64,000 nt of DNA from a virus (Duplodnaviria; Caudoviricetes), in IMG/VR virus record IMGVR_UViG_2751185783_000001, positions 1 to 64,000 of that record; one strand, written 5' to 3'. Both the position numbers and the translations under genes were made by a program. The notes below the pieces were generated by a model that saw nothing but the letters and a program-made list of their open reading frames with translations, was not told where the DNA came from and made no database searches. Every line of letters starts with the position of its first letter. The stretch's first letter is position 1. Positions 10,446-42,683 of this stretch are shown here, one piece after another.

Positions 10446-10658
10446 CCTCCTCTAAAGAGGAGGAGGGGAGCGTGATTGCCTACCGCGTGATTGCCGTGAT
10501 TGCTGCCGTGATTGCCTGACCTGCACAAACACCTGTCAGCGTGATTGCCGTGAGTGGTCCGTGATTGCTCGCCCGTGTAAACCAGGCCGTGATTGCCTGA
10601 CCTGCGGAAACGCAAGATCGCGTGATTGGTGCGTGATTGCTCCCCACGCCCAATCACG
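10446..10658. repeat. Iteron-like array of CGTGATTG(C) (9 direct copies, 1 inverted) plus hairpin CCTCCTCT-AA-AGAGGAGG; putative origin
   Basis: Copies at 10471, 10486, 10495, 10507, 10540, 10560, 10588, 10621, 10632 and inverted at 10651; immediately downstream of the helicase gene. Confidence 0.8.
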
Positions 10659-12132
10659 CAGCCCCGGAGATCGACCGACGTACCACGAAGTACAGCTTCT
10701 GCGGGCGCCCACCGTTGACGTTCGGCTCCCCGTCGACGCTCACCAGCTCGCCGGTCCGGACATGGTTCTCCAGCTTCCGGCGCGCCCGTTCGATGTCGTT
10801 GCGTTCGGTCCGGCCGTACAGCTGCTTCGCGGCCTGATGCGGGCTCAGGCCGTTCGGGCAACGCGACGCCATGAGGACCACGTCGGTGGACGCGTCACCC
10901 CGGTCGACTTCCGATCGTCCGGCCAGGTGGTCGTGGATGATGGCGAGCGGACCGACATCGTTACGGGCCTGCTTGACGTGGAGGAGGTCCACGACCGGGT
11001 CACCGGCCTCGCCCCACAGAACGATGACCGATCCGGCGCCGGACGGAATCCAGGTGGAGCCGTACACGTCTGACAGGGAATTCGGTTTCTTGCCCTGCTC
11101 GCCGCCGGACTTGCGCTGGTGATGCAGTTCCAGCACCTGCACACCGGAGCGGATCGCAAGCTGTCGTGCCCGGTTGTAGCCCGCGCCGACCTCGTCCTTG
11201 GAGAGACCAACAGCGGCATCCTTAATTGAGTCGACCATGATGGTGTCCGCCCCGGCAGCCCGGCACATCTCCACCATCAGCGACGGGTTCGCGGCGAAGT
11301 CGGCCGGCGGCGGACCCTGCCAGACGATGAGGCGCTCTTCGAGTACCTGCCGCCACTCCGGCCGGACGATCCGGGCCAGCGACCGGGCGGCCTGCTGTGG
11401 CCGGTCCATCGCCAGGTACAGCACCCGGCCCTCGCCGGGGGTGACCGGCCAGCCCAGCACTTCGGGGATGAGACCGAGCCGGGCCATCACGAGCTGCCCA
11501 CCGATGGTCGTTTTGCCGACGCCCTGCGGCCCGCAGATCATGAGGGCTTCGCCGGACACCCACAGCACGTCGTCGCCGGAGCCCCAGATCACCGGGACCT
11601 TGTCGGGCATGTCGAAGATGAACGACGCGCCGTTGCTGAGCTGGGATTTCCAGCCTGCGCCGCCTTCGTCGGGGCTCGCGGCGAGTTGCTGTTGCATCTG
11701 GTCGTAGGCGCGGGCGATCACGGCCCGGTCTCCGGTGCGGGCGGCTTCGGCGACCAGGGCGGCGCTCTGTTCGGTGCGGCGGGCGAACGCGCGTTCCTTG
11801 ACCTGCCGGGCGTACCACGTTGCGCTGGCTACGGTCGGTACCGCCGCTTGGCAGGTGTGGAGGTAGGGCACGCCGCCGACGCGCTGCAAGTCGCCGATCT
11901 TGTCGAGGGTGATGGCGACGGCGAGGGGATCGGTGGGTTCGTTGATCGCGGCGTTCGCGGCGATCGTGGAGTAGATGACCCCGTGTGCGACCTTGTAGAA
12001 GTCGGATGCCTGGAGGATCGGCAGTACTTCGGCCACGGCGTCCGGGCTGACCATGAGCGCGCCGATGACGACCTGCTCGATCCGTTCGGTGCTGACCTTC
12101 GAGTCCCCAGCGGGCACCAGTTCCAGGGTCAT
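10654..12132 (-). CDS. DnaB N-terminal domain fused to an AAA_25/RepA-like helicase
   Basis: EQVVIGALM...DFY..AH..IY (DnaB-N); Walker A GPQGVGKT; Walker B IMVDS; LHHQRK. Confidence 0.85.
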   Translation of the reverse strand: MTLELVPAGDSKVSTERIEQVVIGALMVSPDAVAEVLPILQASDFYKVAHGVIYSTIAANAAINEPTDPLAVAITLDKIGDLQRVGGVPYLHTCQAAVPTVASATWYARQVKERAFARRTEQSAALVAEAARTGDRAVIARAYDQMQQQLAASPDEGGAGWKSQLSNGASFIFDMPDKVPVIWGSGDDVLWVSGEALMICGPQGVGKTTIGGQLVMARLGLIPEVLGWPVTPGEGRVLYLAMDRPQQAARSLARIVRPEWRQVLEERLIVWQGPPPADFAANPSLMVEMCRAAGADTIMVDSIKDAAVGLSKDEVGAGYNRARQLAIRSGVQVLELHHQRKSGGEQGKKPNSLSDVYGSTWIPSGAGSVIVLWGEAGDPVVDLLHVKQARNDVGPLAIIHDHLAGRSEVDRGDASTDVVLMASRCPNGLSPHQAAKQLYGRTERNDIERARRKLENHVRTGELVSVDGEPNVNGGRPQKLYFVVRRSISGAA

Positions 12133-12288
12133 GGGCAGCCGCCAGAAGTGATCTTTCCGGCTGCGCACCTGATTGAGGACAGCACTGCATTACCGTGTTG
12201 CACGGGCGGAGGTACCTCTCCGTCAAGGGCCCGGGGCACAGGAACGCCAATTCCTGCCGGGCCCGCTCTATGTGGCTGGCCGGTCGGC

Positions 12289-40816: not shown

Positions 40817-40872
40817 ATCGTATAAGACGCGGCGTCAATCGCCTAGCGATTGACAAAGAGTCGTGCTAGCTT
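40817..40872. promoter_or_regulatory. Divergent leaderless promoters with central operator GTCAATCG-N5-CGATTGAC (40834-40854)
   Basis: -10 boxes TACGAT (minus) and TGcTAGCTT (plus), each 7 nt from an ATG. Confidence 0.75.
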
Positions 40873-40879
40873 CATTCCC

Positions 40880-42421
40880 ATGCCCCTGACAGTGACCGCC
40901 TACCAGGCACCCGACACCGGCCCCACCACACAGCCCGTGCCGGCCACCGTGGAGACCAGCTGGTTCGAGCGCGCCCTGAACGCGTTCACCGACGGCCCCG
41001 CAACCACCCTCACCGCCGCCCTGCTCTCCGCACTCATCGCCGGACTCGGCGTCTACTTCTTCACCCGCCGCCCCGGCAAAAACGACTTCAGCAAGCAGCT
41101 CATGTACATCCCGCTGCTCCTCGTCAACGGCGCCGCCGTCTACGGACAGGTCGCCTTCTTCTACGAGACCGTCGCCCCCACCGCCTGGGCCGTCCCCGGC
41201 AAAATCCTCCTCGCCGTCGTCATCGCCCTCGCCATCGAATCCATCTCGATCTACGTCGGCTGGCACGCCCACGACGCGCTCATCAACAAACTCGGCCACA
41301 CCGCCGCCCGCCTGCGCCGCGCCTCCTACGGCATCGCCGGACTCGTCGCCGCCATCAACTACGCCCACTTCGCCGACTTCTCCGACCGCACCGGTAACCG
41401 CCTCGGCCTCAACGCCGCATCCGTCGCGTTCGGCCTGCTCTCCCTGATCAGCCCCTGGCTGTGGGGACTGCACTCCCGTCGGCTCAAGAACCTGCAACTC
41501 GCCAAGGAAGGCGTCATCGACGCCACCGGCGCCGTGTTCTCCGGCGAACGCGTTCGCTCCTTCCCGCTGCGCTCCTACCTCGCCCGGCGCTGGTCCATCG
41601 ACCGGTACATCACCGACCCGCGGCAGGCGTGGCGCGGCTACAACCACGAACTGCGGATGCGGTGGGCCGCCGACGTCGACCAGCCCGGCTGGTGGCTGCG
41701 CATCAACCCGGCCGCCAGGGTCAAGCAGCTCGCCGAAACCCTCACCGGGCAGAAGCAGCTGTCGTGGGCGATCGCCCTGCACGCCGAAACCCTCACCGGT
41801 GAACTCACCTCCACCCGCGCCGCGGTCGGTGCCGCCGAACGAAACGCCGCCGCGCAGACCGCCCGGGTTACCGCCCTCACCGAGGAACGGGACACCCTCA
41901 CCGGTGAGCTTGAGACGGCCCGCGCCGACATCGAAGACCTCACCGACCAGTTGACCCAGGCGACCTCCGACATCCAGTCCGCGCGCCACGAAATGGCCCT
42001 CACCGTTGAGGCCCGCGACGACCGGATCCGGGAGTTGGAGAAGACCCTTACCGACACCGTCGACAGGCTTACCGGTGAGAACGCTGACGCTCTCCGTAAG
42101 GCGCAGGCGGAGTACACCTCGAAGCTGGCGATCGCCCGCGCCGAGGCTCGGGTGCCGCGCCTCGACGACCGTCGCGGTAAGGCGTCCCCGGTGACCTCGC
42201 CGGCCTCCACCGGTAGGGCCTCACTGACCGATGAAGACGCTGTTCAGAAGATGCTTACCGAGCAGTCCGACCCGAGTTTCGAGTGGTCGAAGAACGCCGT
42301 CCGGGAGCTTCTCGGTGTGGGGTTCGGTAGGGCCGAGAAGCTCATCCCGATGTGGCTTACCGCCGCCCGTGAGAACGCCTCCGGTAAGCCGTCCGGTGGG
42401 GTTGTGGCGGTGAACCAGTGA
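40880..42421 (+). CDS. DUF2637/SpdA-like membrane protein with coiled coil and C-terminal FtsK-gamma-like wHTH
   Basis: Multiple TMs; AAINYAH; heptad region; WSKNAVRELLGVGFGRAEKL. Confidence 0.7.
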   Translation: MPLTVTAYQAPDTGPTTQPVPATVETSWFERALNAFTDGPATTLTAALLSALIAGLGVYFFTRRPGKNDFSKQLMYIPLLLVNGAAVYGQVAFFYETVAPTAWAVPGKILLAVVIALAIESISIYVGWHAHDALINKLGHTAARLRRASYGIAGLVAAINYAHFADFSDRTGNRLGLNAASVAFGLLSLISPWLWGLHSRRLKNLQLAKEGVIDATGAVFSGERVRSFPLRSYLARRWSIDRYITDPRQAWRGYNHELRMRWAADVDQPGWWLRINPAARVKQLAETLTGQKQLSWAIALHAETLTGELTSTRAAVGAAERNAAAQTARVTALTEERDTLTGELETARADIEDLTDQLTQATSDIQSARHEMALTVEARDDRIRELEKTLTDTVDRLTGENADALRKAQAEYTSKLAIARAEARVPRLDDRRGKASPVTSPASTGRASLTDEDAVQKMLTEQSDPSFEWSKNAVRELLGVGFGRAEKLIPMWLTAARENASGKPSGGVVAVNQ

Positions 42422-42683
42422 CCCGTCTCCGGGCCGCTCACCGGTTGCTTGCGGTGGGGGCTATCGGTGCGGGGCTCGTCGTCTTGCGCGATGGGTTCAC
42501 CGGTGACCTCACCGCCCACCCGGCCGCCGTCTTGATCTGGGCGGTGTCGACCGTCGGCGTGGGGCTTACCGCCCGCGCGATGCGCCGGACTGCTTACCGC
42601 AACACCCACCACCAGACCCCCAAGGAGAACTGACATGACCGAACCGATCGACACCACCGCCACCGCCGAGGTGACCCTCACCG
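41741..42683. repeat. Dispersed CT(C/T)ACCG motif array embedded in coding sequence
   Basis: 15 forward and at least 2 further reverse copies counted by eye, including palindromic CTCACCGGTGAG. Confidence 0.7.

Follow-up and report, generated by a model that had tools for sequence, protein, structure and literature searches.

A dense array of CTYACCG words in the gene of a prophage membrane protein, and its possible recognition by the protein's own C-terminal domain

Results

A single seven-base word is packed into g1 and the genes that follow it

The stretch analyzed here, which we call the window, comprises 64 kb (positions 1 to 64,000) of the IMG/VR virus record IMGVR_UViG_2751185783_000001. 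Our subject is one gene in this window, g1, which codes for a membrane-anchored protein with a putative DNA-binding domain at its C-terminus, and a dense array of the word CTYACCG (Y, C or T) that lies largely within g1 itself. The gene belongs to a cassette in which a divergent helix-turn-helix (HTH) regulator (g0) is followed by g1, small transmembrane (TM) genes, and an FtsK-type pump (Table 1). The protein layout given in the original prediction, a TM segment followed by a coiled coil and a C-terminus containing SKNAVRELLGVGFGRAEKL, was confirmed from the translation, with several TM helices, and several hydrophobic helices fall in the first 200 residues. In a 20-sequence alignment (A1), the TM domain and the last 60 residues are conserved and the coiled coil is almost unalignable. 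The protein has no P-loop or ATPase domain, the motor being encoded by a separate gene.

By pattern search, we found 19 copies of CTYACCG within 943 bp, 15 on the plus strand (41741, 41792, 41876, 41897, 41939, 41999, 42047, 42068, 42254, 42356, 42437, 42508, 42565, 42593, and 42677) and four on the reverse strand (42175, 42382, 41902, and 42073). Every one of the 17 copies first listed is among them, and the two added reverse copies, 41902 and 42073, each supply the second half of a CTYACCGGTGAG palindrome, the form that some copies had been said to take. The claimed extension over three genes and both strands also holds, since the array runs through g1, g2 (four copies, two of them out of frame), and g3, which carries the last copy (42677); a single isolated copy at 41009 lies outside it. 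Eight of the 19 copies have the CTT form (six on the plus and two on the minus strand), the number originally counted, and this form is rare: CTTACCG and its complement occur 378 times in the whole 10.3-Mb genome, which is 70.6% GC, with eight of these occurrences inside the array. The array is the densest 1-kb stretch of CTYACCG in that genome (19 copies; runner-up 7), and the 64-kb window holds 58 matches in total compared to 22.9 ± 4.9 in dinucleotide-preserving shuffles. A by-eye check of the copy spacing for a 21-bp phase revealed short in-phase runs only.

Table 1. Features of the cassette, with coordinates in the window.
Feature	Coordinates	Strand	Basis and remarks
g0, divergent HTH regulator, 92 residues	40531..40809	-	phrog_8 (transcriptional regulator), E = 8e-4; kept upstream of g1
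Perfect 21-bp palindrome, GTCAATCGC-CTA-GCGATTGAC	40833..40853		Read directly from the sequence; g0-g1 intergenic
g1, 513 residues	40880..42421	+	N-terminal multi-TM domain (residues 1-~284), variable coiled coil (~285-440), conserved C-terminal three-helix domain (~447-500)
CTYACCG array, 19 copies (15 +, 4 -)	41741..42683	+	Pattern search; extends from the part of g1 coding for coiled coil and HTH through the whole of g2 into the beginning of g3
Region coding for the predicted C-terminal three-helix HTH-like domain, g1 residues 451-500	42230..42379	+	AlphaFold2 model
g2, small membrane protein, 71 residues	42418..42633	+	Start overlaps the g1 stop codon (GTGA)
g3, small protein, 74 residues	42635..42859	+	Homologue present in L002
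Predicted membrane ATPase (pump), FtsK/TraB type, 974 residues	45903..48827	+	TM helices, coiled coil, Walker A GVTGMGKS, C-terminal winged helix

The array is under selection at the level of DNA

A dense word inside a coding sequence could lack any DNA function and be a by-product of a protein-level need for Leu-Thr (or Ala-Glu, Thr-Ser-Glu) combined with codon bias and low complexity. Two observations favor this explanation: 13 of the 19 copies encode Leu-Thr in frame, with G as the first base of the next codon (CTY-ACC-G), and Leu-Thr pairs are themselves enriched in the C-terminal part of g1 (13 compared to 2.7 in residue shuffles). Holding the g1 protein fixed and redrawing its codons from the usage of the window, we expected 3.75 ± 1.7 copies compared to the 15 present, a number that none of 2000 resamples reached (P < 0.0005). 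When the synonymous codons of g1 itself were permuted, 9.3 copies still arose, a further point for the by-product explanation, and the 15 present remained in excess (P = 0.003). Thus, the word is enriched against codon-preserving shuffles, and Leu-Thr frequency alone, which the original prediction had named as the outcome that would undo it, does not account for the density. Owing to the degeneracy of the word, an exact-7-mer maximum test did not reach significance for the window gene (P = 0.23); the degenerate test did.

The copies that are not in-frame Leu-Thr argue against a by-product. There are six of these, namely 42437 (read as Ala-His-Arg), 42593 (Ala-Tyr-Arg), and the reverse copies 41902, 42073, 42175, and 42382. 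Three of the six have the CTT form, compared to ~0.035 expected in the span from its genome-wide frequency, and out-of-frame and reverse-strand copies, the rare CTT form included, are enriched roughly tenfold. The codons chosen at the Leu-Thr sites point the same way. All three LTGE sites of g1 use the rare GGT codon, building ACCGGT cores, and the CTT Leu codon occurs six times in the C-terminal part of g1 and not at all in the N-terminal part. We compared the DNA of seven full-length relatives, which together with the window makes eight genes, and in these eight Leu-Thr is encoded CTY-ACC in 52 of 65 pairs, where the remaining Leu and Thr codons of these genes would predict 48%. The Leu-Thr sites form conserved islands within the otherwise unalignable coiled coil; rare CTT and GGT codons recur at orthologous sites, the CTT codon being kept at three orthologous Leu-Thr sites in the window, L093, and L095 (L numbers denote loci). 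We conclude with high confidence that the array is real, unique in its genome, and, as originally proposed, under DNA-level selection.

Relatives keep the array in place and switch its word

A protein search returned about 20 full-length homologues of g1 with 43-58% identity, and many more proteins that share only the membrane domain. An unbiased count placed CTCACCG as the top 7-mer in the same part of the gene in L002, L035, and L036. L037, L061, and L062, which have a type-D C-terminus, contain no CTYACCG word; the word at this place is CCTCCG, which occurs in two of the forward frames and also on the opposite strand. L093/L097 and L095/L098, two loci of the same genus that are prophage-like, code for a shorter protein that joins a different N-terminal TM domain to a window-like coiled coil and a type-A C-terminus. 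The N-terminal domain in L093 and L095 is DUF2637/SpdB2-like and matches the DUF2637 proteins of pJV1 and pWTY27. These two genes hold 10 and 14 copies of CTYACCG within about 500 bp, CTTACCG and CGGTAAG forms among them, and each has one more copy immediately after its stop codon. For types C and E of alignment A1, our coverage came solely from other loci. A profile of the C-terminal domain led us to more distant genes (L103-L107). In the type-E genes L103, L104, and L107, CGGAGC is present 18-23 times per 1.1 kb, distributed over every frame and either strand, and L105 carries 22 copies of CGGAGA.

Several aspects of these relatives are hard to reconcile with a protein-level by-product. Copies continue past the stop codon in L002, L036, L097, and L098, much as the array of the window extends into g2 and g3; CGGAGC and CCTCCG occupy two or three frames and both strands; and the pentamer CGGAG continues with C in 95% of cases in the type-E genes and with A in 86% of cases in L105. 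In a maximum-hexamer test (look-elsewhere-corrected, synonymous permutation, 900 nt), 11 of 15 genes gave P ≤ 0.013, and the genes at this level hold 10-22 copies of one hexamer per 900 nt. By comparison, 13 control genes of the window and the coiled coil of the pump itself hold 6-11 copies of their top hexamer, with no hexamer exceeding 11. We conclude that an array is retained at this position of the gene in the homologues and that, judging by these alignments and counts, its word switches with the subtype of the C-terminal domain, from CTYACCG to CCTCCG, CGGAGC, or CGGAGA. The original prediction had suggested looking for co-variation of the word with recognition residues of the domain; among the homologues, co-variation is apparent at the level of the domain subtype.

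In the relatives whose similarity to g1 is confined to the membrane domain, a Pro/Glu-rich linker leads to a different C-terminal HTH, and the part of the gene coding for this linker is rich in repeated 7-mers: CCGGCTC/CGGCTCA in L006, L011, L013, and L069 (10-11 copies), GCGGGCA in L015 and L067 (13), CGACTCA in L065 (12), and CCCGACA in L019 (10). Repeats in such low-complexity linkers may be DNA sites or may stem from peptide repeats, which would suit the by-product explanation, and we did not count them as support.

The C-terminal domain resembles FtsK gamma at the margin of significance

The original prediction likened the C-terminus of g1 to the winged HTH domain of FtsK gamma. An AlphaFold2 model built on a 10-sequence alignment places helices at residues 451-461, 471-478, and 482-500 with a predicted local distance difference test score (pLDDT) above 90, and with no strand after helix 3, i.e., no beta wing. 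In a Foldseek search with this domain, the top ten hits were homeodomains and FtsK gamma, none of them significant; the alignments to FtsK gamma structures (2ve8, 2ve9, and 2j5o) covered 45 columns with a root-mean-square deviation of 2.6-2.8 and 29% identity (E about 1, probability about 0.7). VIA-align gave a maximum Z of 4.6 to assorted, generic HTH folds. By sequence, a profile from alignment A2 ranked FtsK gamma 2j5o and 2ve8 first among all PDB sequences, with a marginal E of 0.067 and a match that aligns the stretch from helix 2 through the turn to helix 3. Comparison with the C-terminus of the host's own FtsK by hhalign was collinear over 41 columns (E = 0.017, probability 2.7%), and a Pfam scan of the last 77 residues of g1 returned no family even at E ≤ 10. 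Thus, the best sequence and fold matches are indeed to FtsK gamma, but the scores are marginal and no wing is predicted. We describe the modeled domain as a gamma-like, wingless three-helix bundle whose resemblance to FtsK gamma is real but marginal.

A separate FtsK-fold pump lies downstream

The pump gene begins 3.5 kb downstream of g1, and the end of the array lies 3.2 kb upstream of the pump start codon. The AlphaFold2 model of pump residues 400-930 (pLDDT 88) ends in a winged helix, and a Foldseek search with this model retrieved the FtsK motor domains 6t8b, 2ius, and 2iut together with EccC and TcpA (E about 1e-11). By sequence, the pump had no match in Pfam, NCBIfam, PHROG, or the PDB; PF01580 (FtsK_SpoIIIE) had no match anywhere on contig C269, although the pump has the FtsK fold. 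The family is small, with 41 cluster representatives among 1.8 billion proteins. On the model, the 974-residue pump is an FtsK-fold ATPase with a winged helix of its own.

BLAST-level searches did not find the pump in the related records G401-G403. We dropped the notion that it is absent there, as divergent P-loop membrane proteins, linked by weak similarities, occupy the same relative position in L060, L061, L097, and L098. A conserved protein of 415-651 residues is encoded just upstream of the pump in these relatives (L097 11495-13450, L098 12359-13879, L060 11441-12688, and L061 11124-12509). The L097 and L098 copies have weak Pfam zinc-ribbon matches, and BLAST gave no counterpart among g5-g8 of the window.

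The word follows the C-terminal domain of g1

To identify what the word travels with, we compared words with the other components of the cassette. The window and L097 have in common both the word, CTT variant included, and the C-terminal subtype, and their pump winged helices are unrelated. Conversely, the pumps of L061 and L097 share 66% of their residues along the entire protein, including the winged helix, and the corresponding words are CCTCCG (with a type-D domain) and CTYACCG. The pump of L062 is window-like (43% identity), yet its word is CCTCCG. We rejected g0 as the reader of the array, as the g0 of L061 is 65% identical to that of the window though the L061 word differs, and likewise rejected a host factor, as hosts of the same genus carry different words. 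In these comparisons, the word appears to follow the C-terminal domain of g1 and nothing else that we examined (N-terminal TM domain, g0, pump, or host genus). Because the word co-varies with this domain across swaps of both the N-terminal domain and the pump, g1 is the likely reader.

The cassette and its phage setting

Gene order and homology indicate that the relatives retain the cassette (regulator, g1, small membrane proteins, and pump): g0 is found upstream of g1 in L002, L035, L036, L060, L061, and L062, and homologues of g2 downstream of g1 in L035, L036, and L060. A fourth small gene follows g3, and g2, g3, and this gene have overlapping or abutting stop and start codons. The 21-bp palindrome between g0 and g1 contains no CTYACCG and is unrelated to that word; it is likely to be an operator, probably for g0. 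Searches of Pfam, NCBIfam, and PHROGs returned only generic coiled-coil families for g1 and no match for g2-g8, and tblastn of g1 against plasmid and phage collections returned no match.

A P4-type primase-helicase and PolA are encoded upstream of g1. We assign the element to a phage because PHROG matches identify tail and virion proteins later in the window and because its relatives are classified in IMG/VR; the capsid family PF05065 and the portal family PF04860 were not found in the genome. The full-length relatives of g1 lie on IMG/VR records of 103-113 kb, one of which has direct terminal repeats and is rated complete. The setting is a large temperate phage lineage (a prophage of roughly 100-115 kb) of Actinoplanes-like hosts.

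Other arrays in the window and in relatives

A second, tight array lies in an intergenic region of the window (10471-10658) and consists of ten exact copies of CAATCACG, nine of them on the minus strand, and one near copy. It starts directly after the stop of a DnaB-like helicase gene (10654-12189, minus strand; phrog_6012, E = 5e-114). Element-specific arrays of 7-8-mers likewise follow helicase genes in L060 (~5401, CGCACAC, 10 copies), L002 (~2801, CCGCACA, 10 copies), L097 (~6701, AGACCCCT, 7 copies), and L098 (~6101, ACCTGTCC, 6-8 copies). These post-helicase arrays are candidate origin iterons or centromeres. L098 has a further small array of AGGCCTGC/GCAGGCC at ~11100-11700 (6-7 copies), in small genes between its g1-like gene and the pump.

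Discussion

Array and reader in the proposed tether

The reading toward which we lean, with modest confidence, is that the array constitutes self-encoded docking sites for the gamma-like domain of g1, which would serve as a membrane tether within a Tra/Spd-like cassette. In this model, the 3′ half of g1 and ~260 bp downstream would hold, inside coding sequence, a cis-acting set of about 20 short, mostly co-oriented putative protein-binding sites with the consensus C-T-Y-A-C-C-G, sometimes doubled into the palindrome CTYACCGGTGAG. The reader would be the C-terminal FtsK-gamma-like three-helix domain of g1 itself, which a coiled coil connects to a multi-pass membrane anchor. By binding, it would pin this stretch of prophage DNA to the cytoplasmic face of the membrane, and the tether might be used to position DNA for intramycelial spread or transfer, or for segregation. 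DNA binding by the domain, CTYACCG as its target, and the use of the tether are each inferred. The original prediction had offered two mechanisms, tethering of the element through g1 and loading of TraB; the first fits the comparative data, and the second is disfavored because the word does not follow the pump.

A number of points weigh against this reading. Statistically, FtsK gamma is a marginal match, and a three-helix bundle is a generic fold. Array and C-terminal domain are physically contiguous and would be co-inherited whatever reads the array, and we count no more than about three or four independent switches of the word. Inside motifs, conserved residues show only a modest rise in codon identity (74% compared to 62%). 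The permutation test is somewhat liberal, since three of the 13 controls reached P ≤ 0.015 with hexamers, an inflation that also favors the by-product explanation. L060 and L106 have weak or no arrays, with nothing clear in L106. Finally, we saw no separate array close to the 3′ ends of the pump genes, leaving the pumps without another obvious clt.

Comparison with known systems

In the literature that we searched, there was no description of such arrays in spd-like genes, and only partial precedents, SpdA2-sps and TraB-clt. Streptomyces TraB binds direct 7-9-bp repeats of clt through helix 3 of its winged helix (PMC4447253, PMC3583192). The repeats are 8 bp in pSVH1, nine copies of 9 bp in pJV1, and TGACACC/CCCGCCC in pWTY27 (PMC4447253, PMC3583192); the pWTY27 clt reaches into traA by 16 bp, and clt sizes are about 50-175 bp (PMC3583192). 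The g1 locus is similar in having multiple short direct repeats, on an actinomycete element with an FtsK-like pump, Spd-type membrane proteins, and a divergent regulator. It differs in that ~20 copies are spread over ~940 bp that are wholly coding and belong to another gene, and in that the element is a large prophage rather than a small plasmid. The gene order of pWTY27 (divergent GntR regulator, hypothetical gene, DUF2637 protein, second hypothetical gene, TraA, TraB) parallels that of the cassette. Transfer genes have a phage precedent in the plasmid-phage pZL12, as it is cited in PMC4487206 and PMC3583192.

The coding region of SpdA2, a protein of pIJ101, itself contains the 12-bp palindrome (sps) that SpdA2 binds, and synonymous removal of these sites lowers plasmid stability (Thoma et al. 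2014, PMC4170104). As proposed for g1, a protein of the Spd module thus has its sites in its own gene, where they match a recurring peptide motif (SRDD/E in SpdA2; Leu-Thr at the putative sites of g1). SpdA2, however, is a soluble protein of 135 residues with an N-terminal DNA-binding region and 2-3 copies of the 12-bp palindrome, whereas g1 is membrane-anchored, has its putative DNA-binding domain at the C-terminus, and is associated with ~20 mostly non-palindromic 7-mers.

SpdB2, a multi-pass membrane protein with a coiled coil, binds double-stranded DNA without sequence specificity and interacts with TraB; actinophages carry homologues of it (PMC4447253). The g1 protein resembles SpdB2/DUF2637 of pSVH1 in crossing the membrane several times, in having a coiled coil, and in being encoded in one operon with an FtsK-like pump, here under a divergent regulator; the difference is that the DNA binding of SpdB2 is reported to be non-specific and that no site array has been described for it. 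We did not file g1 as DUF2637/SpdB2 because PF10935 had no match at E ≤ 0.1 to the 20 full-length proteins of A1, nor to the N-terminal 287 residues of g1 alone. When A1 was aligned by hhalign with a set of DUF2637-type proteins (A4), only the coiled coil and the C-terminus aligned. Shorter homologues of the g1 N-terminal domain are named DUF2637 in UniRef, and L107 matches PF10935 at 8e-8; a distant relationship between g1 and DUF2637 is therefore possible.

The comparison with FtsK gamma and its targets, the KOPS (FtsK-orienting polar sequences), rests on structures 2ve8, 2ve9, and 2j5o. The g1 domain is collinear with these over helices 1 to 3, including a (V/I)G(F/Y)x(R/K)Axx(L/M)(I/M) stretch, and its presumed target is, like KOPS, a short, oriented word of 7-8 bp. 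FtsK gamma is a C-terminal appendage of an FtsK/SpoIIIE motor, unlike the wingless and only marginally matching g1 domain, which sits on a membrane anchor and coiled coil; and KOPS are spread over the chromosome, whereas the putative sites of g1 cluster in one 1-kb patch. Among other systems, RacA-ram of Bacillus subtilis and p16.7 of phi29 pair an HTH with a coiled coil and/or a membrane anchor and fix DNA to the envelope, and lambda O has its own sites, the origin, embedded within gene O. To our knowledge, none of these three combines a membrane anchor with a dense, word-switching array in its own coding sequence. We conclude that in none of the known systems we compared does a membrane-anchored HTH protein have a dense array with a switching word within its gene.

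Other readings of the array

The array could instead be a clt-type locus in which the 7-bp words are TraB recognition sequences, read by the winged helix of the pump, which would assemble there and translocate double-stranded DNA. In its favor, the modeled pump combines the FtsK motor fold with a winged helix at the C-terminus, a pump-like ATPase occupies the same relative position in five of five elements examined, and the copies are mostly co-oriented. Known clt loci can also overlap coding sequence (PMC4447253, PMC3583192), and, as noted above, no pump gene has another array nearby. We nevertheless regard this as unlikely, given that the word is not tied to pump type in any of the comparisons among the window, L061, L062, and L097, and that the array, 3.2 kb upstream of the pump and in another gene, is neither compact nor beside the 3′ end of a tra gene as described clt loci are.

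Read by g1 or by another protein of the element, the array could also have a different purpose, such as autoregulation of the g1-g4 operon or a roadblock to its transcription, a plasmid-type partition centromere, or a gene-embedded replication origin. Lambda O is a precedent for such embedding, and g1 adjoins the replication genes for the P4-type primase-helicase and PolA. SpdA2 is a second case of self-embedded sites, and its phenotype is one of segregational stability (PMC4170104). However, the separate, tight intergenic 8-mer array after the DnaB-like helicase gene, which has counterparts in related loci, is more origin- or centromere-like; 20 sites over 940 bp are unlike iteron origins; and no ParA/ParB pair was seen in the cassette in a search that was not exhaustive. 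These purposes seem to us quite improbable. That the words have no DNA function and merely reflect peptide composition, codon bias, and low complexity is very unlikely in view of the out-of-frame, reverse-strand, and rare-codon copies described above.

Implications

If g1 reads its own gene, this would reveal how, in a mycelial bacterium, the DNA of a large temperate phage is marked and positioned at the membrane beside a conjugation-type pump, and would bear on the question of virion-free spread of such phages between hyphal compartments. It would also provide a clear case of a dense DNA code laid over a protein code, constraining the evolution of the coiled coil. In addition, the matched pairs of HTH and word, four words so far, would form a natural series for working out a gamma-like recognition code. 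More tentatively, and with some doubt on our part, the arrays may represent a modular system of address tags in actinomycete phages and integrative elements, in which a gamma-like HTH, detached from the FtsK-type motor and carried on a membrane anchor and coiled coil of its own, travels with an array of its sites inside its gene. Were this so, the pair of HTH and array would mark "self" DNA, either for an FtsK/TraB-like pump that is itself sequence-neutral or for segregation at the membrane. Joint change of HTH and word (CTYACCG, CCTCCG, CGGAGC, CGGAGA) would then give rise to new specificities, allowing several such elements to coexist in one mycelium without cross-talk.

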